The notes: generated by a model from the sequence alone, not told the origin. Shown: positions 8,835 to 59,354, counted from the first letter of the stretch. The stretch: 64,000 nt of DNA from Dictyostelium discoideum (GCA_000004695.1 CM000151.3:2208001-2272000); one strand, 5' to 3'. A program made the numbers and translations.

Positions 8835-9729
8835 ATGGAATCAGATGGAGGTTTATCAAGATATCAAAAATTAGAGAAATTAGGTGAAGGTACCTATGGT
8901 AAAGTATATAAAGCAAAAGAAAAAGCAACTGGTAGAATGGTTGCACTTAAAAAGATTAGATTAGAAGATGATGGTGTTCCAAGTACTGCTTTACGTGAAA
9001 TCTCTTTATTAAAAGAAGTACCACATCCAAATGTTGTTAGGTAAATAGTTATTTATTAATTAATAAATTAATAATAATTATATTAATTTTTTTATTTTTT
9101 TTTTTTTTTAATAAATAAAAAATTTTATTAGTTTATTTGATGTACTTCATTGTCAAAATAGACTTTATTTGGTATTTGAATATTTAGATCAAGATTTAAA
9201 GAAATATATGGATTCCGTACCAGCATTATGTCCACAATTGATAAAGAGTTACCTTTATCAATTATTGAAGGGTTTAGCATACAGTCATGGTCATAGAATT
9301 TTACATAGAGATTTGAAACCACAAAATCTTTTAATCGATCGTCAAGGTGCATTGAAATTGGCTGATTTTGGTTTAGCTCGTGCAGTTAGTATTCCAGTAC
9401 GTGTTTACACTCACGAGATTGTAACCCTTTGGTATCGTGCACCAGAGGTCTTATTGGGTTCAAAAAGTTACTCTGTACCAGTCGATATGTGGTCTGTTGG
9501 TTGTATCTTTGGTGAAATGTTAAACAAAAAACCATTGTTTAGTGGTGATTGTGAAATTGATCAAATCTTTAGAATCTTTAGAGTTTTAGGTACTCCAGAT
9601 GATTCAATTTGGCCAGGTGTCACTAAACTTCCAGAATATGTTTCAACTTTCCCAAATTGGCCAGGTCAACCATATAATAAAATTTTCCCAAGATGTGAAC
9701 CACTTGCATTAGATTTAATTGCTGTATGT

Positions 9730-9778
<49 letters not shown>

Positions 9779-9926
9779 AAAACAAAACGAAATCAAATTA
9801 CTAATTTATAATTTTTTTTTTTATTTTTATTAGAAAATGCTTCAATATGAACCATCAAAGAGAATTTCAGCTAAAGAAGCACTTCTTCACCCATATTTTG
9901 GTGATCTTGATACTAGTTTTTTCTAA
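8835..9926 (+). CDS. cdk1: Cyclin-dependent kinase 1 (Cdc2), 296 aa. It has 3 exons: 8835..9040, 9132..9723 and 9834..9926.
   Basis: [11 protein letters not shown] glycine loop, PSTALRE helix, [10 protein letters not shown] and DFGLAR motifs. Donors GTAAAT (9041) and GTATGT (9724) and acceptors ...TTATTAG (9131) and ...TATTAG (9833) all keep the frame. The spliced product VV|[22 protein letters not shown]...DLIA|[30 protein letters not shown] matches my recollection of Dictyostelium Cdc2. Confidence 0.95.
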
Positions 9927-10227
9927 GAAATAGAACTTATCAACATATCATCATTTAAAAAAAAAAAAAAAAACCCAATAATACATATTCAACAATTTTA
10001 AATCTTTATTTGTGTAAAAGCAAATAACTTTTTTTCCAAAAAAAAAAAAAAAATAACCCTTAACTCTTTTTTGCTCAATATTCTTTTTATTTAAATTTTT
10101 AAAGGATTTATTCATTCGTTCATTTTTTTTTCATAATACTTTCAAAATTACTTATTTAAACAATTTTTAATATTTATAAATAAAAATTATTTTTAAAAAA
10201 AACTCTTTAATTTTTATTACTTTTTAT

Positions 10228-11580
10228 TTATAGTTTTTTAACAATTGTATTTAAATTTTGAGCAAATGGTTTAAAAGAAAATTTATCATTTACACGTTGT
10301 TTACCATTGATACCCATTTTTTTGGAATTGATAGGATCATTGATAATTTTATTGAAAGCATTTGCAAAATCTTTAACGGTTGGATTACAAAGGTAACCAG
10401 TTTTACCATCGACAACTGTTTCTAATGGACCACCATTATTAACAGCAATCACAGGTTTACCAGCATACATTCCTTCCAATGGTGTAATACCAAAATGTTC
10501 AAATGATGGTGTATAAATTAAACAACAACAGTTTAATAATAACCATTGTTTTTGTTCTTCATTAATTGTTATCAAGAAAATTACACGATTCTCTAATCCA
10601 TATTCTTTGGCTTTATCTTTTAATTCTTGTAAATGTTCAACATTCTCTTTTAATCCTGTATCATATCCACCTGCAAATACTAAATAAATTTCATCTTTAC
10701 CTTTACCACTACCACCACTTTCACTATTACTAATAAATACACTAAATGCATCCAATGCTAATTTTAAATCTTTTTTTCTTTCATATCTATTAATTGACAA
10801 AAAGAATTTTTTATCACTATTATTAAAAAAAAAAAAAAAAAATATTAATAAATTATTATTATTATTATTGAATATATGTATATATTTAATAAATTAATTA
10901 ATTTACTCTAATTTAATTGGATTAATTAAATTATTTTCAATTGGTTGATTTGAAAAATTATGAGATTGTTTTGTTTTATCAAATTCGTTTGTATTGATGA
11001 TTGGGTATAATACTGATGGTGAATTTTTGAGATGTTTAAAAGATTGTTTATAAATTGATGAAGTGAAGTTACTATTGACCAATACTTGATCGGCACAACC
11101 AGTGGTAAACTCTTCGAAGAGGTCGATTGGTATACGATAGAGTCTTTTGATTAATGATGTTCTCGATGTTAATAGTTTGTCAGGGAAATGACAGTAGAAT
11201 AGTACTTTAGAATTTGTAAATAGTTTAAATAATGGAATTGAGGCTGAGATTTGGTCCAATACAATCACGTCATACTTTTGACCAGAGAAAAAGATGATGT
11301 ATAATGCTGCTAAAAGGTTTCTAATGATTGCGCAAATTACCATAAATCTATTGAAAATATGTCTTGGGAAATAGCCACCTGTGACGTGTACGTCCAATTC
11401 ACCATTAGATGTCTCTTTAAAGCATCTCTTTGGGTCGTGTCTTGATGTGTACATTGTGATTCTATTATTTCCAACACTCTTTAATCCTAATGCTAAATCA
11501 ACGATTAATCTCTCTGCTCCACCAATACCTAAATCTGGATGTAAAATTGCAATATTTAATTCTTTTTCATCTTTTACCAT
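10228..11580 (-). CDS. alg2: Alpha-1,3/1,6-mannosyltransferase ALG2 (glycosyltransferase family 4), about 420 aa. It has 2 exons: complement(10907..11580) and complement(10228..10816).
   Basis: N-terminal IAILHPDLGIGGAERLIVD is the ALG2 signature. Exon 2 has FLSINRYERKK and the GT4 EX7E region EHFGITPLEGMYAGKPVIA. A GTAAAT donor at 10906 and an AG acceptor at 10817-10818 join the exons in frame (...IKL|DDKKFFLSINR...). Confidence 0.85.
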
Positions 11581-12682: not shown

Positions 12683-13393
12683 TACCATTTATTTTATTTT
12701 ATTTTAGTTCAATTATTAAAGAAATTAAGCATTAGAGCAACAAATGGACCAGATAAATTATTTAAAGTTATTAAGAATCCAATTACAGATCATTTAGCAC
12801 CAGGAACTAAAATATACGCAACTTCATTCTCTGCACCAAAATGTGTAGATTTATTTGAATTTGTTCCAGAAATTTTCGGATATGATCCATTACCAGTGAT
12901 TCCAGTTTCAACTACACCAACAGGTGTAGCATTAGGTTCATCAACCAATAACAACAACAATGTAAATAGTATTCAATCATTAAATTCATTAGGTGGAGCA
13001 CAAGTTAGAAGTGCTGGTGAAAGTTATTATGAGGGTATGGAAGATGAAGAAGCAGCAGAAGAAGAAGAAAAAGCAACAGAAACAAATAATAAAAATAAAA
13101 ATAAAAGAAAACAAGATGAAAAATCTGATAATGATAAAAAGAAACAAAAAACTTCAAATACTACAACTACAACTACTTCGACTGCAACAACAGTACAAAA
13201 GAAACCAGAAAAGAAATCTGATCAATTAAATGGTTTACAACAAGTTTGTATTGTAATTGGTGCCATGTCAACTGGTGCTATGAAAATCGAGTATAAACAC
13301 GAAGAAATCGCTTTCTCAAATTATCCTTTATCCGCTGCTGGTGCTTGTTTTAAAATTACTACAGTTTTTGAAAGACAATGGGGTATCTTGTAA
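12282..13393 (+). CDS. Ribosome-biogenesis methyltransferase EMG1/NEP1 homolog with a long internal low-complexity insertion. It has 2 exons, 12282..12612 and 12708..13393, and encodes about 338 aa.
   Basis: Exon 1 contains [29 protein letters not shown]...RIPRTF. A GTAAAT donor at 12613 and a TTTTAG acceptor ending at 12707 are phase 1. Exon 2 continues [41 protein letters not shown] and ends with the EMG1 C-terminus [25 protein letters not shown]. Between them lies an in-frame insert of about 90 residues rich in N, E and T. Confidence 0.85.
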
Positions 13394-13499
13394 AAGAAAC
13401 AAAAATAAATTAAAAAAAATTAAAAAATAAATAAAAAAAAATAAATAAAAAAAAAATAAATAAAAAAAAAAAAAAAGAACAAAAAATTTATTTGATTCA

Positions 13500-13530
<31 letters not shown>

Positions 13531-13947
13531 AAAATTTTCTAATGTTTGTTTTAGGGATTGGAAAAACAATAGTAAAGAAAATAATAATAGAAATTTAAAG
13601 ATAAAAACTTTTTCTTTTATTTTTTTGACTAATATCCTTGATTGGTTTTCTTAATTTATTATTTTTTTATTTTTTTATTTTTTGTGTAAAAAGTGAAAGT
13701 AAAATTATTTGAATAACATTTTCAGAACCACACAAATTTTTTAATTTTGAACATTGAACAAATTAATTTTAGATTTTATTAAAAAATTTTCTTTGATTTG
13801 AAAATATCTAGCCAACCGATTTGATTACTTTTATTTTTTTTCTTTTATTTTCTCAAATTTTTTTTTTTTCTTTTTTCGAAACAAATCAACTTTATTTCAA
13901 TATTTTTTTATTTTTTTTAAAAAATTAATATTAATAAATAAATTAAA

Positions 13948-14525
13948 ATGACACTTAATTATGGCAGCTCAGCACTTCACAAAGTATTAGGATCAGGTGC
14001 TGGTAAAAAAGAGAAAAAAAGTTCTGGTAGAGCTGCAGATTCAACAGAAACAGTTATAACTATTGTTTATGGTGATGGTAAAGTTTTTGAAGCCCAGGAT
14101 TCAAATGGTTTGGCTGATCCATTTATTAGAATTGGTACAGTTAAATCTGAAGGTAAATATATATATTTATATATATTAAAATTATTAAATTATTATCAAA
14201 AAAATATTAATTTTTTTTTTTTTAAAAAAAAAAAAAGGTGTTTTTAGTAAAAAATGGAAATCAGAATCACCAGTTTGTGAAAAAACACTTACACCAAATT
14301 GGAATTACTGTGAAGATGAATTTATTATTAAAAAAACAACAAAAGAATTAGTAGTTGAACTTTGGGATAAAGATACACTTAAAGATGATTTCGTAGGTAG
14401 AGCAATCGTTGATATTTCAGGTATTGTAACTAGTTTAATGTCATTCAATATTGAATTTAGAGAAAAACCAACTGATGAAAAGCCAAAAGGTACTGTTACA
14501 ATTTATATTAAAAAATTATATTAAA
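13948..14525 (+). CDS. Small C2-domain protein (about 163 aa). It has 2 exons: 13948..14152 and 14239..14525.
   Basis: Exon 1 encodes ...VITIVYGDGKVFEAQDSNGLADPFIRIGTVKSEG. A GTAAAT donor at 14153 and an AG acceptor at 14237-14238 are phase 1. Exon 2 encodes VFSKKWKSESPVCEKTLTPNWNYCEDEFIIKKTTKELVVELWDKDTLKDDFVGRAIVDISG, a C2 beta-sandwich pattern with the aspartates of the Ca-binding loops. The stop is at 14523-14525. Confidence 0.75.
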
Positions 14526-24917: not shown

Positions 24918-26640
24918 TTAATTTTCCCAATCACTATCGTCTTCATCATCTTCTTCATTTTCACCTAAATTTCCTCTTCGTTTAGCCATTGCTGCTGCTA
25001 ATGTATCTACTAATGAACGATTACCAGACTCACCTAATTGTAATTCTTTTAAATCTGGTAATGGTTCACTTGGATCTACTTTTTTTAAATGACTTGCACC
25101 TCCAAATCCTCTAATACTATCCATGAGATTTGAACGACCACTATCCAATGGTGGCATTGATGTGGGTGGTGCAGAGGTTGGTTTTGATATTGCTGGTGGT
25201 GGAGGTGGTACCATCGATGAATTATTTAATGAAATTGGTGCACTTGGTGGTGGTGGTGGAGGTGGTACCATCGATGAATTATTTAATGAAATTGGTGTTG
25301 GTTTTTCAATTGGTGATTGAATTGATGGTGCTGGTGGTAATGGTGATTTTGGATCAACTGGGGCAACTGGAATATGAGCTAATTGATCAGGCATTGGTGG
25401 TGGTGGTGGAGGCATTACATCACCCCCAACTTTATCAATAATAACTTGTGGTTGTTGAGTAGTTCTTTGAATAATTGGTGGTTGAACGACTGGTATTCTT
25501 TGTTGAGTTGGTGGTGTTGGTGGTAATCCTGGTCTTTTGGAAGTTGGTAACGGTGGTGGTGGAGATTGTAATTTTGTTTGTGAAGGTTGTTGTGATAAAT
25601 CTCTTCTTTGTCTTGGTGGAGGGGTTGGTTGTTTTCTTTGTGGAGTTACTTGTTGTGGTTGTTGTGGTTGTAGTGGTTTTTGTTGATAAAATTGATTATA
25701 ACCTTCTAAATTTTGTGGCTGTTGAGATGATTGATATACATATTGCTGTGGTGTTTCACCTTGGAAAGTGTATTCTTGAGGTTTTTGATTTTGTTGTTGG
25801 TAAACGTATTGTTGTACACCATTCGAAGTTGATTGCATTACTTGCTCCATTTGTTGTGGTGATGGACGTTTTTGTGTTGGTTGTAATGGTTCATCCAATT
25901 TATATTGTGATTTAAATTCTTGTTGGATCAATGGTTCGTTACTATTATATATTTGTTGCTGTTGTGGTTGTTGTGGTTGTGTTGGCTGTAGTGGCTCATC
26001 ATCTGGTTTCATGAAATTTTGATGAATTGGAATTGGTTTACCACCGATTGTAGTTGGTAATTTACCTCTAGTAGTATATGCTTGTTGTTGTTGTTGTTGT
26101 TGTGGTGGTTGTTGTTGAGCCATTTGTTTATATGGTTGTTGTGGTAATGGTTTATTAATTTGTTGGTGTTTTGGTAAAGGTCTAATTTCAGAACCAGGTT
26201 TTGGTGGAGGTACTCTTTGAGCACCCATTTTTTGAGTAGTTGATGTGGGTGGGGGTGGAGGTGGTGCTCTGGATCTAATTGGTTGTTGTTGTTGCTGTTG
26301 TTGTTGTTGCTGAGGAATATTGGTTTGCTGATATGGTGCTGTAGTTGTACCACCTGCCATACCTGCTTTTTGATTATTAATATTCTCACCTATTATACTA
26401 TAAATGAATTGAACAGTTTCTGGATTCTTTAAATCTTTTTTCTTTATACCTGCTGCTTGAAATAATTGTCTCCACTCTGGTGGAATATTTTTAATTTCAA
26501 AACCATTTTCTTTATCCCAACCTATATGAGATTCATGTTTAAAATCAGTTGGACCTGATATCTCCATACCTTTTTCTTCATTTCTATGTCTAGTTTTATC
26601 TAAAACTTTTTGAAAAAATCTACCATGTTTTTTTTTTGTT
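24918..26640 (-). CDS. WASP-family actin nucleation-promoting factor lacking a WH1 domain (basic region, CRIB, poly-Pro, WH2, central-acidic). This is the main exon. It resembles the WH1-less Dictyostelium WASP paralogs, but I am not sure which one it is.
   Basis: Upstream of the ORF-track Met, the frame continues with no stop up to the AG at 26641-26642 (KTKKKHGRFFQKVLDKTRHRNEEKG). The protein has the CRIB motif ISGPTDFKHESHIGWD, more than 300 aa of Pro/Gln-rich sequence with PPPPP runs, the WH2 motif RSNLMDSIRGFGGASHLKKV and the acidic tail ENEEDDEDDSDWEN. A 20-residue unit, PISLNNSSMVPPPPP, is tandemly duplicated; the DNA repeat lies at about 25190-25320. Confidence 0.85.
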
Positions 26641-43459: not shown

Positions 43460-45406
43460 ATGATGGAGCCAATTAATTATAAAAATATATCATTTAATGA
43501 TATTAAATTAGATAGTAATTGTAATAGTAGTAGTAGTAGTTCAAGTAGTAGTATTGGTAGTAATAGAAGTGGTAGTGGTGGTGGTGGTGCGATTTCAAGA
43601 AAAAGTTTTGATTGTAGTACTAGTAATGGTATTAGTGAATTTGGTGGTGATGATGGTGGTTGTGGTGGTGGTTGTGGTGGTGATATGGGTAATAATATTA
43701 ATATTAGTATTAATAAACGTCATAATTCAGTAAATAGTATTAGTAGTAATAAAAATATAAATTGTTTGTATCATGATTTAAATGATTTAATTACATATTG
43801 TAATGATTGTGAAAGAATGATATGTGTACAATGTATAGTTAGTAATGATCATTGTGGTCATAAATTCACAGAGATATCAAAACCATTTGCGTCAAGTTTA
43901 TTAGAGAAATTTCAAAAACAACAATTCCCAAATCTATTAGGTTATAGAGAAAGTGATAAACATATAATTTCAGCATTAGATTATTGTTGTAATGATGTCG
44001 AGCGCCAACATATAGAATCGGTAAAACAAGTCAAACAACATTTTCAAAAATTAATTGAATCGATTCAGTCCATTGAAAAGGATATCATTGAAAAATTACA
44101 ATCAACAGTTGAATGGAATAAAGAATTACAAAATTCAATTAAACAGCAGTTTGAAAGAGATTCAAAGAAAATCGATTCGATAATTTCAAAACATCATTCG
44201 AAAATCAATGGTTATCAAATTGACCAAATTTACGATTTTGAAACTAAACAACATATTGAAATTATTAAAGATTCAGATCAATGTACACCACTATTAAAAA
44301 GAAGATTGGAGATTTTAAATAATAATTCCTCTTCAAAAATTAAATTTAAAAATGATTTACTTACATTTAATATGGAAATATTTGACGAGATTAAAGAAAA
44401 AGTATTAAATTTCACAAAAATTGAAAATGTAGAATATAAAGATTTAAAATCAACTAAACAACATTTAATGTTAAATAAGAAGATTCAACCTTATAATATT
44501 GATTATTATTTATGTCATGGTGAGCCAATTCCATTAGGTGAGACATCGGTTGCATTGGATTCAAAATATTCTTCAAAATCAATTTGTATTCAGTCAAATA
44601 AAAGTATTGATAGATTGTTATTATGTAATGGTTTTAAATTATCATTGAGTGAGTTTAAAATACCAGATTCAATTAAAACATTGAGAATTGGTGATATTAA
44701 ATACTCTTGGGATGCAAATTCAATACCATCAAGTGTAACAGAGTTACATCTATGTGATGGTTTTAATCATATTCTTTCGAGTGGTATGATACCAAATACA
44801 GTTACAAAATTATATTTATATGATATTAAACAACCTTTAACTATGGGTTCAATACCATCAAGTGTAAATGAATTACATATGTGCGATGGATTCAGTTTAC
44901 AATTGGCTCCATTCGTTTTACCAAATTCTATAACTTCATTAAGTATAGGTGAAATTAAATATTCAATTCTACCAGAATTTATACCATCAAGTGTAAAAAA
45001 GATACGTTTATATAGTAGTTTTAATCATCCAATTATTCCTCAAAATATTTCAGAATCTGTTGAAACTTTAGTATTATTTAATATTAAATTAAATCTTGAA
45101 AATAAAGTAATACCAAAATCAATTAAAGAATTACATTTATGTGATGGATTTGAACAACAAATTCAACCATTCTCAATTGAAAATGGTGGAAAATTAGAGA
45201 AATTGGTATTATGTGATATTAAAGAAAAACTATTAAAAAATTCAATACCAAATTCTGTTAAAAAATTAATTTTCTTAGGTTATAATCATCAATTAGAAAA
45301 TGGTATTTTAAATGATTCTTTAGAATTAATTTATTTTAGTAAAAGTTTTACTCATCCAATTGATAATAATTTAATTCCAAATAATATTGAAATTATAAAA
45401 AAATAA
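43460..45406 (+). CDS. B-box zinc-finger plus FNIP-repeat protein (648 aa), a Dictyostelium-expanded family
   Basis: B-box-like CLYHDLNDLITYCNDCERMICVQCIVSNDHCGH. The C-terminal half carries at least 8 tandem repeats of about 22 aa of the FNIP type (IPSSVTELHLCDGFNHILSSGMIPNTVTKLYL...), followed by a coiled-coil middle region. Confidence 0.8.
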   Translation: MMEPINYKNISFNDIKLDSNCNSSSSSSSSSIGSNRSGSGGGGAISRKSFDCSTSNGISEFGGDDGGCGGGCGGDMGNNINISINKRHNSVNSISSNKNINCLYHDLNDLITYCNDCERMICVQCIVSNDHCGHKFTEISKPFASSLLEKFQKQQFPNLLGYRESDKHIISALDYCCNDVERQHIESVKQVKQHFQKLIESIQSIEKDIIEKLQSTVEWNKELQNSIKQQFERDSKKIDSIISKHHSKINGYQIDQIYDFETKQHIEIIKDSDQCTPLLKRRLEILNNNSSSKIKFKNDLLTFNMEIFDEIKEKVLNFTKIENVEYKDLKSTKQHLMLNKKIQPYNIDYYLCHGEPIPLGETSVALDSKYSSKSICIQSNKSIDRLLLCNGFKLSLSEFKIPDSIKTLRIGDIKYSWDANSIPSSVTELHLCDGFNHILSSGMIPNTVTKLYLYDIKQPLTMGSIPSSVNELHMCDGFSLQLAPFVLPNSITSLSIGEIKYSILPEFIPSSVKKIRLYSSFNHPIIPQNISESVETLVLFNIKLNLENKVIPKSIKELHLCDGFEQQIQPFSIENGGKLEKLVLCDIKEKLLKNSIPNSVKKLIFLGYNHQLENGILNDSLELIYFSKSFTHPIDNNLIPNNIEIIKK

Positions 45407-45642: not shown

Positions 45643-47760
<2,118 letters not shown>

Positions 47761-47995
47761 TTTAAAATAAATGAAAAAATAAAATGAAAAAATAAAAAAA
47801 AAAAAAAAAAAAAAAGGGAAAAAAACAAAAAAAAAGAAAAAAAAAAACAAAAAAAAAGCGAAAAAACTGAAAAAAAAAATTGGAAAAAACTGAGAGTTTT
47901 TAAATAAGATGTTTATTTGTGGCAATATTATTACATTTATAAATAATATATTATTGGTGGTTTAATATATAAATTATAATTTAATTTTTGTAATT

Positions 47996-48334
47996 TTAAT
48001 TACAACCACAATTGTTTGAACCTCCAGTTAAAATGGAACCAACTCCATGTAAAACAGAACCAACAATTACACCAGTACCAGTAAGAACACCACCAACGAG
48101 ACCACCGACTGCACCGAGTAATCCTCCATTTCCACAACCACCGCATTGAATTGAATTCATTGATTGTAAAGAAGATGACGAGTTTGATAATGATGATAAA
48201 TTATTTGATTTTGAAATTGATTTAACATTACCAATTGATGAGATTGAAGCTATTTTAATAATAAAATTTAGAATTATTATTTATTTATTTTTTTTTTTTT
48301 AATTAATTTCTTTTTACATACCTAAAATTGTCAT
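47996..48334 (-). CDS. HssA/2C/7E-family small Gly/Ser-rich protein, array copy A, 88 aa. It has 2 exons: complement(48322..48334) and complement(47996..48249).
   Basis: A 13-nt first exon ATGACAATTTTAG with a GTATGT donor and a 72-nt intron lead to a second exon encoding [84 protein letters not shown]. The family is identified from the CGGC...GLLG(G/A)VGGLVGGVL...GSNNCGCN pattern. Confidence 0.75.
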
Positions 48335-48416
48335 TTTTATATTTGTTTAATTTTTATTTGTTTGATATACTAATTTTTTTTTTTTTTTTCTTATTAATAC
48401 TTTTTTTTTTATATGT

Positions 48417-48472
<56 letters not shown>

Positions 48473-48947
48473 AACCAAAATGGTAGATTAATTATTGATA
48501 TTCATATTTACAAGATTCTATTATAATATATGTATACTTATGAAAATAATCATATGAATAGGGTAACATGTTTTTTTTAAAGGTTATATAAAGTTAACTT
48601 TTATTAGAAAAATCACAATCACAATCACAATCACAATCACAATAACAATGTAAATTTTTTAAAAAAAATTAATTGTATTCTAATTAGGAAACAGTTTTTA
48701 TACCATTTTAGAACATTTCTTATTTTTTAAAAAAAAAACAATACAATCTAATGACAGTTTTGTTAAAAGGTCAAAAATAATACCCCATTCGTTTTTTTTT
48801 TTTTTTTTTTAAACCCCCTATTAATAAATAAAAAATCAATTAAAAATTATAGATTCAAACAAGGATTGATTGTTTTATATAGAATTAATACATGAATATA
48901 TCATTTTGATGAGAAGTTAATAATTCTTAATATTTTAATAGTATTTT

Positions 48948-48990
<43 letters not shown>

Positions 48991-49062
48991 AATAAAAATA
49001 GTTTATATTTTTTTCATAATTTATTATTATAAAACAAACAAATAAACATTTAAAAATTACAA

Positions 49063-49416
49063 ATGACAATCTTAGGTAATATTTTAAATAATATATTTAA
49101 ATTTTAAATATATATTTAAAAAAACAATATTAATAAATTTTAAAAATTTCAAAATAATTAAATAGCTTCAATCTCTTCAATTGGTAATGTTAAATCAATT
49201 TCAAAATCAAATAATGTATCATTATCAAATTCATCATCTTCTTTACAATCAATGAATTCAATTCAATGCGGTGGTTGTGGAAATGGAGGATTACTCGGTG
49301 CAGTCGGTGGTCTCGTTGGTGGTGTTCTTACTGGTACTGGTGTAATTGTTGGTTCTGTTTTACATGGAGTTGGTTCCATTTTAACTGGAGGCTCAAATAA
49401 TTGTGGTTGTAATTAA
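49063..49416 (+). CDS. HssA/2C/7E-family protein, array copy B, 87 aa. It has 2 exons: 49063..49075 and 49166..49416.
   Basis: Same 13-nt first exon (ATGACAATCTTAG|GTAATA), a 90-nt intron and a second exon 97% identical to copy A. It is head-to-head with copy A, with 730 bp between the two start codons. Confidence 0.75.
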
Positions 49417-49905
49417 AATTACAAAAATTAAATTATTTATATTTTAAATTAACCAAAAATAAAACCCAATTTTATAATTTGTAAAATAAAAAAAAAAAAA
49501 AAAAAAAAAAATATTAAGTAATACCTTTTTTAAAATTATTATTTAAATTATTATATTTCAAAGTAGTTCTTTTTTTTAAAAAAATAATAAAAGAGTTGTA
49601 ACTTTAAAAAATTATTGGTTGGTCTTTTAAATATAAAAAAAAAAAAAAAAAAAAAATTCCAAATTAAATTATTCCTGGGTAATGCAAATTTTAATAATTT
49701 AAAAAAAATTAAAAAAATAAAAAAAATTATTCAATCAAAAGGATTAATCATAAAAAAAATGAATTTTTATCAATTATTTCAACCTAATGTAATTATCTCA
49801 TTTATTACTTTTTCTTTTTTTTTTTTTCTTTTTTTTTTTACATTTACAAATAATTAAATTTTGTTTATTATAATTTATTTAATATATATTTATATTTTTG
49901 TAATT

Positions 49906-50244
49906 TTAATTACAACCACAATTGTTTGAACCTCCAGTTAAAATGGAACCGACTCCGTGTAAAACAGAACCAACGATTACACCAGTACCAACAAGAACTC
50001 CACCAACGAGACCACCAACTCCACCGAGTAATCCTCCATTTCCACAACCACCACCACATTGAATTGAATTCATTGATTGTAAAGAAGATGATGAATTTGA
50101 TAATGATGATAAATTATTTGATTTTGAAATTGATTTAACATTACCAATTGATGAGATTGAACCTATTTAATTGAAATTTTTAATTAATTACAATTTTTTT
50201 TTTTTTATATTTTTTTTTTTTTTTTTACATACCTAAGATGGCAT
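49906..50244 (-). pseudogene. HssA/2C/7E-family copy C with a disrupted first exon. Exon 1 is complement(50233..50244). Exon 2, complement(49906..50162), is intact.
   Basis: The first exon reads ATGCCATCTTAG|GTATGT, 12 nt with an in-frame TAG, where other copies have ATGACAAT(C/T)TTAG (13 nt). This is a 1-nt deletion plus substitutions. Exon 2 would encode a normal family protein if it were entered in phase 1. Confidence 0.5.
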
Positions 50245-50342
50245 TTTATTTATTAAGGTTTGGTTATATTTTGGTTTGGATAATTATAAATTTTTAATTT
50301 TTTCAAAATGATACTTTTTTTTTTTTATATAAAAACTTTTAA

Positions 50343-50385
<43 letters not shown>

Positions 50386-50984
50386 ATTATGTATTTGTTT
50401 TTATTAAATAATTGCAAAAAAATATAAGATACCCTACATTATCATTTATATAAAAAATTATATCTTAGATCATTATGATTTATTTTTTAAGGAAATAATG
50501 GGTTAAATTTTAAGAGAAAATAACACAATCACAATTTAAATTATTATAAAATTTATAGATTATTAAATATACAATTCAAATTAAGAAATAACACTTTACC
50601 ATTCTTGGATGATTCTTTTAAATCTTTTATATTCACTATTTAAGAATATCTATCTATATACAAAATTATCGAAAATGATAAACACAACTTTTTTAAACCC
50701 CCCAAAAAAAAAAAAAAAAAAAAAAAAAATAATAAAAAAATAATAAAAAAAAAAAAAATAAAAAATAAAAAATAAAACAAAGATTGAGTGATAAATTCAG
50801 ATTTAATGTATACATCTACAACGATATTATGATTAAAAGTTAAAGCAATACATAAATTTATTACTATTTAATTTTATTTATTTTTCAATTATTTTATTAA
50901 AAAAAAAAATTATAAAAACTTTTTTTTTTTTTTTTTTTTTTATATTCCAAAACAAACAATTAATACTAAAAAATAATATAAAAA

Positions 50985-51337
50985 ATGACAATCTTAGGTA
51001 TGCTTTATATTTTGTAAAAAAAAAATTAATTATTAAATACTTATTTTTCAAAATTTACTATAATAATAATTATTAAATAGGTTCAATCTCATCAATTGGT
51101 AATGTTAAATCAATTTCAAAATCAAATAATTTATCATCACTATCAAATTCATCATCTTCTTTACAATCAATGAATTCAATTCAATGTGGCGGTGGTTGTG
51201 GAAATGGAGGATTACTCGGTGCAGTTGGTGGTCTCGTTGGTGGTGTTCTTACTGGTACTGGTGTAATTGTTGGTTCTGTTTTACATGGAGTTGGTTCCAT
51301 TTTAACTGGAGGTCCAAACAATTGTGGCTGTAATTAA
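50985..51337 (+). CDS. HssA/2C/7E-family protein, array copy D, 89 aa. It has 2 exons: 50985..50997 and 51081..51337.
   Basis: ATGACAATCTTAG|GTATGC, an 83-nt intron, and exon 2 encoding [85 protein letters not shown]. It is head-to-head with copy C. Confidence 0.75.
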
Positions 51338-51873
51338 AATTACAAAATTAAATTATAATTTATATATTAAACCAACCAAAAATTTAACCTCAATTTTATA
51401 ATTTGTAAAATAAAAAAAAATAAAAAATAGAAATATTTAATAATACTTTTTTAAAATTATTTTTAATTATTTAAATTTCAAAGCAGTTCTTTATTTAAAA
51501 AAAACTAATAAAAGAGTTGTAACTTTAAAATTATAAGTTTGTCTTTTAATTAAAAAAAAAAAACCACAAAAAAAAAAAAAAAAAAAATTCCAAATTAATC
51601 CTAGGTAATGAAAATTTAAATAATAATAATTTAAAAAAAAATTAAAACATAAAAAAATCATTCAATCAAAAAGATTAATCATAAAGAAAATGAATTTTTA
51701 TCAATAACCTCATTAATTACTCAAAATACTTTTTTTTTTTTTTTTTTTTTTTATCAATAACCTCATTAATTACTCAAAGCTTTTTTTTTTTTTTTTTTTT
51801 TTTTTTACATTTACAAATAATTAAACTTTGTTTATTTTTAATTTATTTAATATATATTTATAATTTTTTAATT

Positions 51874-52210
51874 TTAATTACAACCACAATTGTTTGAACC
51901 TCCAGTTAAAATGGAACCGACTCCGTGTAAAACAGAACCAACAATTACACCAGTACCAACAAGAACTCCACCAACGAGACCACCAACTCCACCGAGTAAT
52001 CCTCCATTTCCACAACCACCACCACATTGAATTGAATTCATTGATTGTAAAGAAGATGATGAATTTGATAATGATGATAAATTATTTGATTTTGAAATTA
52101 ATTTAACATTACCAATTGAAGAGATTGAACCTATTTAATAATAAAATTTATTAATACAATTTTTTTTTTTTTTATTTTTTATTTATTTTTTACATACCTA
52201 AGATTGTCAT
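51874..52210 (-). CDS. HssA/2C/7E-family protein, array copy E, 89 aa. It has 2 exons: complement(52198..52210) and complement(51874..52130).
   Basis: ATGACAATCTTAG|GTATGT, a 67-nt intron, then exon 2. It is nearly identical to copy C exon 2. The ORF-track ORFs at 49926..50138 and 51894..52106 are antisense readings of copies C and E. Confidence 0.75.
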
Positions 52211-52697
52211 TTTATTTGTTTTGTTTTGTTTTGTTTTTATTTTGTTTTGTATATTATTAATATTTTTTTTTTTTTCTTATTTATACTTTTTTTTTATTTA
52301 TAAAAACTTTAAATTTTTTGAAAAAAAAAAAAAAAAACTATATTTTTATTTTTAATAATAACTAAACAATTGTAAAAAATATAAGATACCCTACATTTTC
52401 ATTTATTTAAAAAATTGTATCTTAGATCAGTATGATTTATTTATTAAGGAAATAATAGGTTAAATTTTAAGAGAAAATAACACAATCACAATTTATTATA
52501 AAATTTATAGATTATTAAATATACAATTCAAATTAAGAAATAACACTTTACCATTCTTGGATGATTCTTTTAAATCTTTTATATTCACTATTTAAGAATA
52601 TCTATCTATATACAAAATTATCGAAAATGATAAACACAACTTTTTTAAACCCCCAAAAAAAAAAAAAAAAAAAAAAAATAAAAATAATAAAAAAAAA

Positions 52698-52728
<31 letters not shown>

Positions 52729-52936
52729 AAACAAAGATTGAGTGATACATTGAGATTTAATATACATCTACAACTATATTATGATTAGAAGTTAAACCAA
52801 TACATAAATTTAATATTATTTAATATTATTTATTTTTCAATTATTTTATTAAAAAAAAAAAATTATAAATACTTTTTTTTTTTTTTTTTTTTTATTCCAA
52901 AACAAACAAATAAATAATACTAAATAATAATAAAAA

Positions 52937-53314
52937 ATGACAATCTTAGGTATGTTTTATTTTTGTAAAAAAAAATAAATAAAAAAATAAAATAAAAAAA
53001 AAATTTAATTATTAAATACTTATTTTAAAATTTACTATAATAACAATTATTAAATAGGTTCAATCTCATCAATTGGTAATGTTAAGTCAATTACAAAATC
53101 AAATAATTTATCATCATTATCAAATTCATCATCTTCTACACAATCAATGAATTCAATTCAATGTGGTGGTGGTTGTGGAAATGGAGGATTACTCGGTGGA
53201 GTTGGTGGTCTTGTTGGTGGTGTTCTTGTTGGTACTGGTGTAATCATTGGTTCTGTTTTACACGGAGTCGGTTCCATTTTAACTGGAGGTTCAAACAATT
53301 GTGGTTGTAATTAA
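52937..53314 (+). CDS. HssA/2C/7E-family protein, array copy F, 89 aa. It has 2 exons: 52937..52949 and 53058..53314.
   Basis: ATGACAATCTTAG|GTATGT, a 108-nt intron, and exon 2 encoding ...[51 protein letters not shown]. It is head-to-head with copy E. Confidence 0.75.
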
Positions 53315-53700
53315 AATTACAAACTTAAATTATAATTAAAATATTAAACCAACCAAAAATAAAACCCAATTTTTTAATTTGTAAAATAAAAAAAAAAAAA
53401 AATAGAATTATTTAATTATACTTTTTTTAAAATTATTTTTTAAATTTATTATTTTTCAAAGTTGTTCTTTATTTAAAAAATTAATAAGAGTTGTAACTTT
53501 AAATTACAAGTTTGTCTTTTAAATATAAAAAAAAAAAATCACAAAAAAAAAAAATTCCAAATTAAATTATCCCTGGATAAGAAAATTTAAATAATAATAA
53601 ATTTAAAAAAAAATAAAAAAATAAAAAAAATCATTCAATCAAAAAGATTAATCATAAAGAAAATGAATTTTTATCAAAAACCTCATTAATTACTCAAAAT

Positions 53701-53759
<59 letters not shown>

Positions 53760-53978
53760 TTATGCTTTTGAATAGAAATCTCCGTTTGGCTGTCCTCGAT
53801 ATGATTATAATCTTCCATCACTCTCGATTAATATATCAAATTATTGTTTTCAAAAGATAATAAATTAACTACATCAATAAAATATATTAACCCCTTTTTA
53901 AAAAGGGGGTCCAAAAAACAAAAACAAAAATTTATATTAAATTTTATATTTGCACACAAATAAAAATAACACAGCTGT

Positions 53979-54010
<32 letters not shown>

Positions 54011-54116
54011 CAGACCCTGTTTGATAACGTAGTGATAAATACTTTTTTATTTATTTATTTTTTTATTAATATTCCAAAACGAACAAACAAATAATACTAT
54101 TAAATAATATCAAAAA

Positions 54117-54432
54117 ATGACAATCTTAGGTATGCTTTATTTTTTGTAAAAAAAAAAAAAAAAAAAAAAATATTTAAATTATTTGTTTTTTAAAAATTTA
54201 ATAATAATTTTATATAGGTTTAATTTCATCAATTAGTAATGTTAAATCAATTTCGAAATCAAATAATTTATCATCATTATCAAATTCATTATCTTCTTTA
54301 CAATCAATGAATTCAATTGAACGCCGTGGCGGCATTAGCATTAGCAATCCAGGATTTCTCGGTGGAATTGGTCGTAACCCTGGTGGTATTCTTGTTGAAA
54401 CTTATGGAAGCTTGGAGGGGGTTCCATTTTAA
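54117..54432 (+). pseudogene. Divergent, frameshifted HssA/2C/7E-family copy G. Exon 1 is 54117..54129 and exon 2 is 54218..54432 (75 aa as read).
   Basis: Normal first exon and intron. Exon 2 keeps ...[30 protein letters not shown], but the Cys/Gly core is replaced ([37 protein letters not shown]). A 10-nt deficit relative to other copies puts the stop at 54430-54432, ahead of the family's C-terminus. It is either a pseudogene or a divergent Cys-free paralog. Confidence 0.45.
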
Positions 54433-55031
54433 CTGGAGGTTCAAACAATTGTGGTTGTAATTAAAATTACAAAAATTAAATTATAATTTAAATATTAAAC
54501 CAACCAAAAATAAATCCCAATTTTACAATTTGTAAATGAAATAAAAAAAGAGTAATCTTATCTAAATTTTTTTTTTCTAAAATTCAAATAATTATCTTTA
54601 AAATAAAATAAAAATGTAATAAATAAAAATAAAATAAAATAAAATAAAAATAGTATAAAATAAAAATAAAAAAAAAAAATAAAAATAAAATTAAAATAAA
54701 ATAAAAATAAAATAAAATAAAATAATATAAAAAGAATCAATGGTATGTGATAGTGGAGGTAAGTCAGTGCTGTTCTCACTAATGGTGAATTTATTAAAAT
54801 ATTTTTTGTTCAATCGTTGGTGCATTAACAAAATTATTTATATTCTATCTTTTAAACTAAAATTCAAATATTTAAAAATAAAAAATTAAAAATAAAAAAT
54901 TAAAAATAAAAATAAAAAAAATTCCTTTGCCTGAGGGAGGAGATTGATAATTAATTATTACTAATAATAATAATAATAATAATAAATCTTTATTTTTTGG
55001 AAAATGAAAAAAAAAAAAAAAATTGTGATGG

Positions 55032-55131
55032 NNNNNNNNNNNNNNNNNNNNNNNNNNNNNNNNNNNNNNNNNNNNNNNNNNNNNNNNNNNNNNNNNNNNN
55101 NNNNNNNNNNNNNNNNNNNNNNNNNNNNNNN
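55032..55131. other. Assembly gap (100 N)
   Basis: Run of exactly 100 n characters. The left edge of the gap lies inside sequence that is duplicated at +4002 bp. Confidence 0.99.
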
Positions 55132-57125
55132 TGATGTGTTGATGTCAAATGACTAGTAATCTATAAAAATCAAAGTCCGGTTCAAATTTAAAGTCATTTT
55201 AAAAATTTAAATATTTTTCGCTAAAAATTTAAAAAAAATCGATTTTTCAAAAATGGATCGGGGTTTTTATATTTAAAAATCATTCATAAGTAAATTGTTC
55301 CTATTTCCTATAAATTTTCTATAAATTTGAGAATGTTTAAAAACATATACGTTTTTAAATCCTACGAGTAATATTCCTTTTATTTTAATGAAAAGTTATC
55401 ACCTACGAAAAAACACCAAAAAACAGCGATTTTTTCAGAATTTTTTTAGGGGTCTATTTGACCCGCCAGACTACGCGCGTTGTTTCGAGGCTGTGTCAGT
55501 ACATCTGGAAAGCTTACTAGGAACCGTCGGTCGAGTGAACTAAATAGGAGTAATATTTATGAAAGTTACAGTGAAATTTTGCACTTTTTTACCCCCAAAA
55601 ATAGGGGGTACTTGAGAAAGTTTTTTGTAAACCAATTTTTTTTTTAACTTGCCATTTAAAAAGTAAGACATACAAAAGATAGCCCTCATTTTCAGCTATA
55701 TTATATCTAAAAATCATTGGAATAAAAAAATAGTACATATTTTTTTCGAATTTTTTTCGAACCTCCAAATTGAAATTTCTCACATTAATTTTTTTTTTTT
55801 TTATATGAAAAATTTTTTGGCGCCAAAATTTTAATAAGTTTTGATCGTGACCCCCTAGGCAAAAACGGAAAAATACATTAACATCGCCAAGAATATAACT
55901 AATTACAGTTACCTCACGGTCGACTCACCATAAAACCACTGTAATCTGTAAATGAGGATCCAATGTCATATTTTTACGAACTTCCGAGTTAAATAAAAAA
56001 TTGTGTTACTTGGTTGACTCTGCCGTGAGGTAACAGTAAGTGTAAAATTAAAATATCTATCTTTTAAAAAAACTTTGATTGATAAGGAACGACACCATTT
56101 AAATTTTTCGCTAAAATACACCAATTTTTGAATTTATTGGAAAATTTTCACTTTTCGTCCCCAGTCTTTATATTCACTATATGCACATAAGCTATTTGGT
56201 AAAATGTGTCAGAATATCTCTCATTGAGTCTAGTTGCTACTTTTATGGGTCTACATTCACTCAATTTCGTTAATTAAAATATCTATAAAGTTCCTTGAAA
56301 AATCCACGAAAAAACACTGTTTTTGGTGTGTCAACTTGGCGAATTTTTTAGGGGGTCCAGTACCCCCCTTTAAAATACGATCTTGTGTCAGATTATCCCA
56401 AATGCTCTGGAAAGCTTACTAGGAACCGTCGGTCGAGTGAACACGAGGGACTTTTTACTTAGCCTCCTTACACCAAAAAAAACTTGGGAAAAATGGTGAT
56501 TTTTCACTTACCACCCGCCAAAGATTCGATTGAATATTTAATAAAAAAAAATTGAGTGCAAAAAGCGAAATACAGAAGTTAGATACACGATAGATCATTA
56601 ACATACTCAAAAAGAATTAAATTTTAACGAGACGATTTACGCGCAGAATTTTTTTCGATTTTCCGAAAAAAAATTTCTCCATATAAAAAAATTTTTGAAA
56701 ATTTTTTAAAATTTTTTTTTCAGTAATTTTAATTTTTGGTACCTTAATGACCCCGTAGATAAACCGGATCAAGTGATTTCAACTTAGAATTTAATTCTAC
56801 GTCTACCATTACTCATTGGTCGAGTCACCGGTAAACCATAGATTTTTATTTTTCCTCAGATTCAGGCATCGATTCTCGTTGTTGACAAGCCTCAAAATTT
56901 ACTATATCTCAATATTAATTAAAATTAACAAATACAAAAAATAAAGCTCTTTTATATGTATATTGTGGAAGTGGCTATATTCGCTCAATTTTTTTTTATT
57001 AAATATTTTTCATTTTTGCCGGAAAAAAAAAAAAAAAAAAAATTTTCAACTTTCGTCCGAAGTTCCTAAATTTTTTTCTCACTTTAAAATTTAAAAATCC
57101 AATCATACAAAAACATCATAAAAGG
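55132..57125. mobile_element. GC-richer (about 33% GC), ORF-less insertion of about 2 kb built from two diverged tandem units of about 900 bp. It may be a non-autonomous transposon or retroelement UTR-module fragment, or a mis-joined repeat. It is unclassified.
   Basis: Its composition contrasts sharply with the flanking sequence, which is over 80% A+T. There are paired motifs 900 bp apart: CTGGAAAGCTTACTAGGAACCGTCGGTCGAGTGAAC at about 55505 and about 56405, TTTTTCGCTAAAA at about 55215 and about 56103, and CGGTCGACTCACCATAAAACCA / TGGTCGAGTCACCGGTAAACCA at about 55917 and about 56818. A 12-bp inverted repeat GTTACCTCACGG (55908-55919) / CCGTGAGGTAAC (56023-56034) brackets a hairpin-capable segment of about 100 bp. 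The right edge at 57125-57133 abuts a truncated HssA-family copy. The only ORFs are two short ones, of 62 and 64 aa. Confidence 0.4.
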
Positions 57126-57132
57126 GTGAGGA

Positions 57133-57314
57133 TGCTTCTTTACAATCAATGAATTCAATTCAATGTGGTGGTGGTTGTGGAAATGGAGGATTACTCGGTG
57201 GAGTTGGTGGTCTTGTTGGTGGTGTTCTTGTTGGTACTGGTGTAATCATTGGTTCTGTTTTACACGGAGTCGGTTCCATTTTAACTGGAGGTTCAAACAA
57301 TTGTGGTTGTAATT
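57133..57314 (+). pseudogene. 5'-truncated HssA/2C/7E-family copy H (3' 182 nt only)
   Basis: It is identical to the 3' part of copy F's exon 2, ...[16 protein letters not shown]...SNNCGCN*, and to F's downstream flank. Everything upstream of the codon equivalent to SSL(Q) is replaced by the GC-richer insertion. Confidence 0.7.
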
Positions 57315-57702
57315 AAAATTACAAACTTAAATTATAATTAAAATATTAAACCAACCAAAAATAAAACCCAATTTTTTAATTTGTAAAATAAAAAAAAAAA
57401 AAAATAGAATTATTTAATTATACTTTTTTTAAAATTATTTTTTAAATTTATTATTTTTCAAAGTTGTTCTTTATTTAAAAAATTAATAAGAGTTGTAACT
57501 TTAAATTACAAGTTTGTCTTTTAAATATAAAAAAAAAAAATCACAAAAAAAAAAAATTCCAAATTAAATTATCCCTGGATAAGAAAATTTAAATAATAAT
57601 AAATTTAAAAAAAAATAAAAAAATAAAAAAAATCATTCAATCAAAAAGATTAATCATAAAGAAAATGAATTTTTATCAAAAACCTCATTAATTACTCAAA
57701 AT

Positions 57703-57761
<59 letters not shown>

Positions 57762-57980
57762 TTATGCTTTTGAATAGAAATCTCCGTTTGGCTGTCCTCG
57801 ATATGATTATAATCTTCCATCACTCTCGATTAATATATCAAATTATTGTTTTCAAAAGATAATAAATTAACTACATCAATAAAATATATTAACCCCTTTT
57901 TAAAAAGGGGGTCCAAAAAACAAAAACAAAAATTTATATTAAATTTTATATTTGCACACAAATAAAAATAACACAGCTGT

Positions 57981-58012
<32 letters not shown>

Positions 58013-58118
58013 CAGACCCTGTTTGATAACGTAGTGATAAATACTTTTTTATTTATTTATTTTTTTATTAATATTCCAAAACGAACAAACAAATAATACT
58101 ATTAAATAATATCAAAAA

Positions 58119-58434
58119 ATGACAATCTTAGGTATGCTTTATTTTTTGTAAAAAAAAAAAAAAAAAAAAAAATATTTAAATTATTTGTTTTTTAAAAATT
58201 TAATAATAATTTTATATAGGTTTAATTTCATCAATTAGTAATGTTAAATCAATTTCGAAATCAAATAATTTATCATCATTATCAAATTCATTATCTTCTT
58301 TACAATCAATGAATTCAATTGAACGCCGTGGCGGCATTAGCATTAGCAATCCAGGATTTCTCGGTGGAATTGGTCGTAACCCTGGTGGTATTCTTGTTGA
58401 AACTTATGGAAGCTTGGAGGGGGTTCCATTTTAA
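58119..58434 (+). pseudogene. Divergent HssA/2C/7E-family copy I, a duplicate of copy G at +4002 bp
   Basis: 58119..58131 and 58220..58434 match 54117..54432 base for base as far as I can compare them. The ORF-track entries 54558..54779 and 58560..58781 are identical and share the same 4002 bp offset. Confidence 0.45.
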
Positions 58435-59354
58435 CTGGAGGTTCAAACAATTGTGGTTGTAATTAAAATTACAAAAATTAAATTATAATTTAAATATTAA
58501 ACCAACCAAAAATAAATCCCAATTTTACAATTTGTAAATGAAATAAAAAAAGAGTAATCTTATCTAAATTTTTTTTTTCTAAAATTCAAATAATTATCTT
58601 TAAAATAAAATAAAAATGTAATAAATAAAAATAAAATAAAATAAAATAAAAATAGTATAAAATAAAAATAAAAAAAAAAAATAAAAATAAAATTAAAATA
58701 AAATAAAAATAAAATAAAATAAAATAATATAAAAAGAATCAATGGTATGTGATAGTGGAGGTAAGTCAGTGCTGTTCTCACTAATGGTGAATTTATTAAA
58801 ATATTTTTTGTTCAATCGTTGGTGCATTAACAAAATTATTTATATTCTATCTTTTAAACTAAAATTCAAATATTTAAAAATAAAAAATTAAAAATAAAAA
58901 ATTAAAAATAAAAATAAAAAAAATTCATTTGCCTGAGGGAGGAGATTGATAATTAATTATTAATAATAATAATAATAATAATAATAAATCTTTATTTTTT
59001 GGAAAATGAAAAAAAAAAAAAAAATTGTGATGGTGCGAATTCGATAACAGAGAGCACAAAATGCTGATTTTTTTTTTTTTTTTTATTATTTATAAAATTT
59101 TAAAAATAAATCAACAATAATGTAATTTTAGTTTTATATCATTGGTGCGTTTTGGTGGGTCACATTTACAAAGAGTGGGTTCACAGAAAAAAAAAAAAAA
59201 AAAATTGGTTGCATAATTAATAGTTGATCATCAAATTGATTATTATAACAATACAATTTTTTCACCCACCAATAAATCATTTTCAAAAAAAAAATTATTT
59301 TTATCCAAACCAAATATAAAAAACAAACAAAAATAAAAATAAAAAAAAAAAAAT

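Follow-up and report, generated by a model that had tools for sequence, protein, structure and literature searches.

The question raised by positions 47,996 to 53,314 of a 64,000-nucleotide stretch of Dictyostelium discoideum DNA (GCA_000004695.1 CM000151.3:2208001-2272000, here called the window, with positions counted from its first letter) is how six small genes, set out as head-to-head pairs, have kept an almost uniform coding exon while their introns and flanks have diverged according to orientation. An earlier note, made from the sequence alone, had described these genes as a tandem array of the HssA/2C/7E family. We consider it highly probable that the region is the Group 1 sigN cluster on chromosome 2 of D. 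discoideum AX4, a local expansion of the approximately 100-member HssA/2C/7E (PF05710) family; this level of confidence refers to our explanation as a whole, which takes in the locus, the tandem pairs, the history of their amplification, the conversion of exon 2 and the expression of the genes. The window is very AT-rich, with a G+C content of about 15-30%, as expected for Dictyostelium.

The Group 1 sigN genes (SrfA-induced gene N) were described by Vicente et al. (2008, BMC Microbiol 8:1; PMC2257962) from a 7 kb region of chromosome 2 with published coordinates of 2.242-2.249 Mb. Their cluster and the one examined here have in common the number of genes, the order of orientations, the 13-nt first exon, an extent of about 7 kb and a neighbouring 75-aa gene, sigN105, and no essential difference between the two was found. 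The protein lengths in Table 1 of that paper (sigN25 88 aa, sigN5 87, sigN2, sigN4, sigN1 and sigN3 89 each, sigN105 75; PMC2257962) are equal to those of our spliced copies A to G, the value for C being taken from exon 2. The published introns of sigN25, 5, 2, 4, 1, 3 and 105 (71, 89, 70, 82, 66, 107 and 87 nt; PMC2257962) differ from ours, which are listed in the table below, by a constant 1 nt that is a matter of counting, C/sigN2 excepted. This agreement in protein and intron lengths identifies A as sigN25, B as sigN5, C as sigN2, D as sigN4, E as sigN1, F as sigN3 and G as sigN105, of which sigN1 was the founding cDNA of the sigN family study (PMC2257962). In addition, the 75-aa protein encoded by copy G is identical to AX4 DDB_G0273025/DDB_G0274097 (XP_644407/XP_645006). 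The products of the five intact copies had no exact match in a collection of 15 billion proteins, in which the G product alone was present. No evidence contradicting the identification of the locus was found.

Membership of the HssA/2C/7E family, as first proposed from the sequence, is borne out by matches to PF05710 ('Coiled') that run from end to end of the profile (positions 1-90 of 90, E 1e-19 to 1e-22). Against a curated cut-off of 21.4 bits, copies A, B, D, E and F reach 69-78 and copy G 35, and the exon-2 translation of C differs from E by a single residue. Since the full profile is covered, the similarity takes in the conserved N-terminus and the Cys-bracketed C-terminus and extends beyond the low-complexity Gly/Ser runs to which it might have been limited. 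A profile search of 1.84 billion representative proteins, made like the structure prediction discussed below with exon-2 translations, gave six matches, a number that is no measure of family size because the library seems poor in D. discoideum members. All six are from species of Dictyostelium (D. discoideum, D. cf. discoideum, D. dimigraforme and D. purpureum), so that the matches are restricted to dictyostelids, and two of those from D. purpureum are named 'HssA/2C/7E family protein' by UniRef. A word-indexed homology search gave two matches, in libraries that seemingly lack most of the D. discoideum family members. The family as a whole has nearly 100 members (PMC6198379).

A BLAST search of the window with exon 2 of one copy, combined with a scan for the first-exon motif, placed the six copies exactly where they had first been reported. 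They form three head-to-head pairs with a period of about 1.95 kb, and the periodic part, which consists of three units, extends over 47928-53767. The pair-to-pair spacings of 1910, 1966, 1922 and 1952 bp were reproduced, the intergenic regions of about 730 bp that each minus/plus pair was said to share measure 728, 740 and 726 bp, and the convergent 3' ends, given as approximately 490-540 bp apart, are separated by 489 and 536 bp. Among the ATG-to-ATG distances of 729, 742 and 727 bp the first and third are right, and the second is 741 bp because one base is missing from the first exon of copy C. The periodicity of the array is far beyond chance. Self-BLAST of 45-64 kb yields a single direct alignment of 3.1 kb, offset by 1919 bp and 84% identical (48822-51811 versus 50741-53761), a second direct alignment (48823-49839 versus 52696-53733) that covers the tail-to-tail spacer of units 1 and 2, and all of the expected inverted gene-to-gene matches. 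It is from self-BLAST that the 1.95 kb period was obtained, Tandem Repeats Finder with its longest period of 500 bp having reported nothing. The periodic array stops after the 3' flank of F because no minus-strand gene comes next. The array is nevertheless not confined to 47996-53314, as the earlier note had it, since copy G lies at 54117-54464 and a truncated F together with a second G is found past an assembly gap, at 57135-58467; elsewhere in the 64 kb window tblastn detected no further family members.

The gene structure is simple and nearly constant. Spliced translation of A, B, D, E, F and G gives a 13-nt first exon, ATGACAAT(C/T)TTAG, followed by a GT...AG intron of 67-108 nt and a second exon of about 200-270 nt, and a first exon of 13 nt is common to 89 of 96 family members (PMC2257962). 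The claim that every copy has this exon is incorrect for C, in which it has 12 nt in this assembly, and the products, put at 88-89 aa, are of 87 (B), 88 (A) and 89 (C-F) residues. The small differences between the second exons are all as first noted: CGGC is found in A and B and CGGGC in C-F, LTG in A, B and D and LVG in C, E and F, and PNN is confined to D, where the others have SNN.

It is in the comparison of exon 2 with its surroundings that the array departs from a simple series of duplicates. Exon 2 is 92.4-98.8% identical across the six copies. The introns and 200-bp flanks, on the other hand, sort by orientation, A, C and E falling on one side and B, D and F (with G) on the other. Within an orientation class C versus E and D versus F are 76-91% identical, the copies of unit 1 often being lower (59-87%), whereas between the classes the identity of introns and flanks is about 50-75%, rising to 80% in a few intron pairs. 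Six of the eleven informative sites in exon 2 support the grouping ABD|CEF and none of them supports ACE|BDF. Thus D and F, which are positional homologues, have introns that are 91% identical and second exons that are among the least alike (93.8%), while the second exons of F and C are 97.3% identical although their flanks are unrelated. Concerted evolution, which had been proposed from the first, is supported both by the near-identity of exon 2 beside diverged flanks of opposite orientation and by an exon-2 phylogeny that contradicts that of the flanks. The simplest reading of this conflict is gene conversion limited to the exon and taking place between the inverted partners of a pair; the evidence for it is suggestive and not formal, because the informative sites are few.

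It could be argued that purifying selection alone has produced this pattern, without conversion, and that the array consists of old duplicates whose coding sequence is fixed. The ratio of non-synonymous to synonymous divergence (dN/dS) is indeed below 1 in every pair of copies (0.06-0.47), and the proteins are highly alike across the family. Selection on the protein, however, cannot fix synonymous sites, and synonymous divergence (dS) among the copies is just 0.03-0.16 despite differences of 30-50% between introns and flanks of opposite orientation. Furthermore, the disagreement between ABD|CEF in the exon and ACE|BDF in the flanks would, if there had been no exchange, need six parallel substitutions. 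We regard selection without exchange as improbable, and prefer exon-limited conversion with selection superimposed upon it.

The history of the cluster could then have been as follows. One gene would have been duplicated in inverted orientation to give a head-to-head pair, and the pair unit of about 1.95 kb would have been amplified to three by unequal recombination, in line with the published proposal that the cluster originated by duplication of a tandem of two inverted genes (PMC2257962). Units 2 and 3, with 84-89% identity in non-coding DNA, would be the youngest, and in unit 1 the centre of the spacer may afterwards have been lost or replaced. Exon 2 would have been homogenised by short conversion tracts between the inverted partners. 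One candidate event is an exchange between A and B that covers exon-2 columns 1-218 or more; another, covering columns 110-218 or more, is an exchange of F with E or C, in place of which D may have been converted from A or B. Purifying selection on the encoded protein would have acted on top of conversion.

The head-to-head spacers bear on this history and also on how the genes may be regulated. The C-D and E-F spacers are 88.7% identical and their local alignment score has a z of 106 against dinucleotide shuffles. The A-B spacer aligns globally with either of the others at 62%, which is near chance for DNA so rich in A and T; its clearly homologous parts are about 140 bp beside A (z 8.5) and about 240 bp beside B (z 8.7), and its central 350 bp or so, at a z of about 4, barely exceed the shuffles. 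The idea that the paired copies share homologous intergenic regions therefore holds in full for C-D and E-F and at the edges alone for A-B. In the same way, the description of the array as a tandemly amplified two-gene unit is true of units 2 and 3, which are homologous over their whole length, and in unit 1 applies to the genes, the flanks nearest to them and the tail-to-tail spacer but fails for the unmatched spacer centre of about 350 bp. Inverted homology between partners extends over the gene and 11-140 bp of leader and no further, and palindromy is weak. In the original study the sigN1-sigN3 and sigN2-sigN4 spacers were alike, non-palindromic and unlike the sigN5/sigN25 spacer (PMC2257962), and both the similarity and the lack of palindromy were reproduced here.

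Two short motifs stand out in these spacers. A CA box, ACAATCACAAT, is present as four tandem copies at 48615-48643 and singly at 50525-50535 and 52482-52492, and a C box, AAACCCCC, is located at 48811-48818, 50695-50702 and 52647-52654. Every head-to-head spacer contains both, in constant order and on a constant strand, and outside the spacers each motif occurs once in the window. It is plausible from this arrangement that the CA and C boxes are shared regulatory elements. Of these boxes, the C boxes of spacers 2 and 3 are the only ones to conform to the strict GBF consensus, (T/G)G(T/G)G(T/G)G(T/G), from which the CA boxes and the C box of unit 1 depart. A putative bidirectional promoter in each spacer would fit both the geometry, with ATGs 727-741 bp apart, and the conserved boxes; the proposal is overstated, however, as the spacers are not palindromic past the leader, that of unit 1 is largely different, and the published reporter test covers one direction of one spacer, that of sigN2 (PMC2257962). 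At Rfam gathering thresholds there was no match anywhere in the window, spacers included.

The timing and place of expression are taken from the same study, in which sigN genes were induced at 10-12 h of development in a partly SrfA-dependent manner, a sigN2 promoter-lacZ fusion was active in prestalk cells, Northern blots and reverse transcription PCR provided further evidence of expression, and G-rich GBF-like boxes were noted in the sigN spacers (PMC2257962). In our model the Group 1 genes would be switched on at about 10-12 h in prestalk cells, with partial dependence on the MADS-box factor SrfA, and GBF probably acts at the G/C-rich boxes in the spacers.

The products themselves, of 87-89 aa, contain 19-22 Gly and 17-18 Ser residues, and four Cys at positions 40, 43/44, 85/86 and 87/88. 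The N-terminal half is rich in Ser and Asn with two Lys as its sole charges, and its short, hydrophobic N-terminus might be a signal peptide. The C-terminal half (approximately residues 45-82) is hydrophobic with 7-9 overlapping GxxxG motifs, preceded by CGGC or CGGGC and followed by CGC, and there are two NxS sequons in the product. Antibodies stained vesicles in mound cells (PMC2257962). The proteins are most likely redundant, vesicle-routed, secreted or matrix-associated products of prestalk cells. To call them 'secreted-type', as had been done, is an overstatement, since the vesicle staining behind this label was obtained with antibodies whose specificity is unproven.

Several observations weigh against our account or against parts of it. 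The A-B spacer is for the most part non-homologous to the others, and as a result 'three copies of one unit' is no more than partly true. The inference of conversion rests on about 11 informative sites, and alignments of such AT-rich flanks are noisy. No phenotype resulted from over-expression, from RNA interference or from deletion of the whole cluster (6,275 bp), whether by itself or combined with that of Group 2, and Group 1 antibodies were likewise without effect (PMC2257962). AlphaFold2, run on an eight-row alignment, returned a mean predicted local distance difference test score of 42, a predicted template modelling score of 0.21 and a single low-confidence helix, a model too poor to be informative. 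Finally, a frame-shifted hssA construct still suppressed a mutant, suggesting that the RNA can be active (PMC6198379). Since neither deletion nor antibodies had an effect, functional statements about the SigN proteins are weak, and the 'dosage amplification' proposed for the array is a guess, the deletion of the cluster having had no phenotype.

The hssA result leads to an explanation of another kind, namely that the transcripts are the functional products and that the array amplifies a dose of RNA. Copy C, with its frame broken in this assembly and its second exon perfect, would be accounted for in this way, as would the low synonymous divergence. The defect in C is probably an error of the reference sequence, however, and in G, the sole copy with an evident frameshift, the middle of the exon has decayed, as expected if the frame matters. 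Constraint on the protein is indicated by a dN/dS well below 1, and over-expressed SigN4 was detectable as a 12 kDa protein, besides the staining of mound-cell vesicles (PMC2257962). For these reasons we consider an RNA function very unlikely and continue to treat the Group 1 genes as protein-coding.

Features of the sigN array and of the DNA beyond it (positions in the window; a dot marks features given without strand)
Feature	Position	Strand	Description
Copy A (sigN25)	47996-48334	-	13-nt exon 1 ATGACAATTTTAG, 72-nt intron, 88 aa; PF05710 E 2e-21; sizes agree with published Table 1
Head-to-head spacer, pair 1	48335-49062	.	728 bp; edges alone homologous to the other two spacers
Copy B (sigN5)	49063-49416	+	13-nt exon 1, 90-nt intron, exon 2 minus one codon, 87 aa
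Tail-to-tail spacer, units 1/2	49417-49905	.	489 bp; homologous to 51338-51873 and 53315-53767
Copy C (sigN2)	49906-50244	-	exon 2 intact, would complete 89 aa; 70-nt intron; exon 1 damaged
Head-to-head spacer, pair 2	50245-50984	.	740 bp; 88.7% identical to pair 3 spacer
Copy D (sigN4)	50985-51337	+	83-nt intron, 89 aa
Tail-to-tail spacer, units 2/3	51338-51873	.	536 bp; from self-BLAST
Copy E (sigN1)	51874-52210	-	67-nt intron, 89 aa
Head-to-head spacer, pair 3	52211-52936	.	726 bp
Copy F (sigN3)	52937-53314	+	108-nt intron, 89 aa
3' flank of F	53315-53767	.	homologous to tail-to-tail spacers as far as a poly-T run
Copy G (sigN105; DDB_G0273025/DDB_G0274097)	54117-54464	+	13-nt exon 1, 88-nt intron, degenerate exon 2, 75 aa
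Assembly gap	55032-55131	.	100 N
Transposon-like segment	55132-57134	.	2 kb, higher GC, no open reading frame >64 aa
Duplicate of 53133-55031	57135-59033	+	99.8% identical, 4 mismatches in 1,899 bp, 4,002 bp downstream

Two of the seven copies have an irregular reading frame. In C/sigN2 the first exon (50233-50244) reads ATGCCATCTTAG, which is 12 nt long with one base missing and one substituted; it contains TAG in frame, and the perfect second exon is shifted out of frame. Exon 1 of sigN2 was repositioned after re-sequencing in the published work (PMC2257962), and for that reason the break is probably an error or a strain variant of the reference; the true form of this exon may be ATGACAATCTTAG. 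Automatic annotation made from the reference will be wrong at this spot, which re-sequencing has corrected. Copy G has a 6-bp insertion and a 16-bp deletion in exon 2, so that its 75-aa frame stops at 54432 and the ancestral C-terminal coding sequence survives out of frame to 54464. Copies A, C, E and F share exactly the last 45 nt of this ancestral sequence (GGTTCCATT…TGTAATTAA), whereas the middle of the exon (54218-54464 as a whole) has strongly diverged; the frameshift may therefore be recent, or the 3' end may still be undergoing conversion.

Beyond copy G the assembly becomes doubtful. The duplicate of the last 1.9 kb before the gap holds a 5'-truncated F (to 57316) and a second G (58119-58466); the first copy of the duplicated DNA runs precisely up to the gap, and the second has an abrupt start within an F-like exon 2. 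Either the two are an unmerged contig overlap, or the segment was truly duplicated and an eighth sigN gene disrupted. The duplicate would explain why sigN105 has two gene identifiers (DDB_G0273025 and DDB_G0274097). It is tempting to extend this suspicion to the array itself, and to suppose that part of it is an artefact in which near-identical repeats were collapsed or falsely duplicated. The 100-N gap lying directly past the array (55032-55131), the abruptly starting repeat at 99.8% identity adjoining 2 kb of transposon-like DNA and the need to correct exon 1 of C by re-sequencing all speak for such an artefact, and we think of it as a possible, though not the probable, explanation. The six core copies, however, differ from one another in exon 2 (by 1-8%), in their introns and in their spacers and are thus not assembly duplicates, and a deletion of 6,275 bp, which fits the assembled size, removed all Group 1 expression (PMC2257962). 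The doubt is limited to the part beyond 53133, that is to the truncated F and second G, and the core array is treated here as genuine. The two weak spots of the reference, sigN2 exon 1 and the gap and duplicate at 55-59 kb, affect gene counts for the family.

The DNA around the gap has further features of its own. The 2 kb segment at 55132-57134 resembles a transposon remnant, and contains a 37-bp exact direct repeat (…ggaaagcttactaggaaccgtcggtcgagtgaac…) at 55504-55540 and 56406-56442, which suggests that it is made up of two diverged copies of a unit of about 900 bp. A tRNA scan of the whole window found no tRNA gene, so the transposon-like segment does not lie beside one. Between F and G, at the position predicted for a further minus-strand sigN gene, there are instead about 270 bp of unique sequence (53768-54034), with a near-perfect GC-ended palindrome (ccccttttt aaaaaggggg) at about 53893-53911; similar C5/G5 palindromes occur near 55593 and 56350. 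This short stretch may be what is left of an element similar in kind to the transposon-like segment, one that broke the array. It was also considered whether the window might span the junction of the large chromosome 2 duplication of AX3/AX4, which is unlikely given that the local repeat is just 1.9 kb and that the published coordinates of Group 1 lie upstream; we take that duplication to start downstream of those coordinates.

On its left the array is bordered by a multi-exon cytochrome P450 gene on the minus strand (45643-47770), its start codon and the 3' end of sigN25 being separated by just about 230 bp. The open reading frame as listed contains, at approximately 47000-47073, an (ATT)n microsatellite whose length is about 70 bp or more. 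To the left of the P450 gene is a plus-strand FNIP-repeat/B-box zinc-finger gene (43460-45406). Further away, and unrelated to the array, a minus-strand open reading frame of 549 aa (24918-26567) resembles a WASP-like actin regulator in having a P21-Rho-binding domain and a weak WH2 motif; its region, at 38% G+C and with a GC skew of +0.42, is richer in GC than any other kilobase of the window.

Comparison with related clusters was helpful in deciding which features of Group 1 are particular to it. Group 2, a second cluster on chromosome 2, comprises sigN6, 7, 8, 9, 11, 12 and 14 together with sigN10 (PMC2257962). It resembles Group 1 in family, two-exon structure, tandem head-to-head pairs, G-rich GBF-like boxes and prestalk expression from about 10 h. 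Its spacers, however, are palindromic with paired regulatory regions A and B, unlike those of Group 1, its proteins are 62-69% identical to SigN1 (Table 1 of PMC2257962), and antibodies against it dissolved mounds, which those against Group 1 did not (PMC2257962). The genes hssA, 2C and 7E and the cup-cell clade of hssA-like genes belong with sigN to the PF05710 family. Like sigN they have a 13-bp first exon and a second exon of about 200-250 bp, encode small products rich in Ser and Gly, are developmentally regulated and lie in clusters of close paralogues (PMC6198379). They differ in that the cup genes are expressed very late and in cup cells alone, and in that 2C and 7E are cAMP-inducible without cell-type specificity (PMC6198379).

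In other dictyostelids the same design is met again. In D. cf. discoideum (JBTAPI010000022.1, 8965-15308) decayed copies lie between two head-to-head pairs, one at 8965-10346 and the other at 12944-14291, and in D. purpureum (GL871327.1) a PF05710 trio at 8163-10345, in the orientations +, - and +, holds a head-to-head pair. From these two loci it appears that head-to-head tandem pairs are a recurrent habit of the family. The D. cf. discoideum locus was rejected as an orthologous array, as it belongs to another subfamily (…SPLIGTVGGLVGG…CGCH) and its flanks have no tblastx match. Its automatic annotation fuses members into a 207-aa model and misses most copies.

A more speculative possibility concerns the C-terminal half of the SigN proteins. 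By analogy with SRCP1 (serine-rich chaperone protein 1), the GxxxG-rich and Cys-bracketed C-terminus may act as a self-associating, amyloid-like or membrane-inserting peptide, of which the array would supply a high and redundant dose in prestalk cells; we think this improbable. SRCP1 is presumably the product of DDB_G0293362. The gene G0293362 is among the hssA-related genes, which show altered expression in mef2A mutants (PMC3640940). SRCP1 itself has 88 aa and belongs to the same large class of small developmentally regulated proteins, for which six further single knock-outs were without phenotype (PMC8554618). The activity shown for it is the suppression of polyglutamine aggregation (PMC8578527), and the Group 1 SigN proteins are likened to it by class and not by sequence.

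The cluster, its gene structure and pairing, the proposed origin, the expression and the knock-out have all been known since 2008 (PMC2257962). What is added here is the conflict between exon and flanks, the positions of the CA and C boxes, the break in exon 1 of sigN2 and the structure of the downstream gap, transposon-like segment and duplicate, all of which are minor. As a discovery the locus is accordingly of little weight, and in a family of about 100 members the question of function is not made more testable by this locus alone. Its interest lies in being a clean and small tandem array of divergent pairs in which conversion limited to an exon can be read from the sequence. If the comparison with SRCP1 were to prove true, exon-limited conversion would be the means by which a head-to-head array is kept uniform for the supply of dose.

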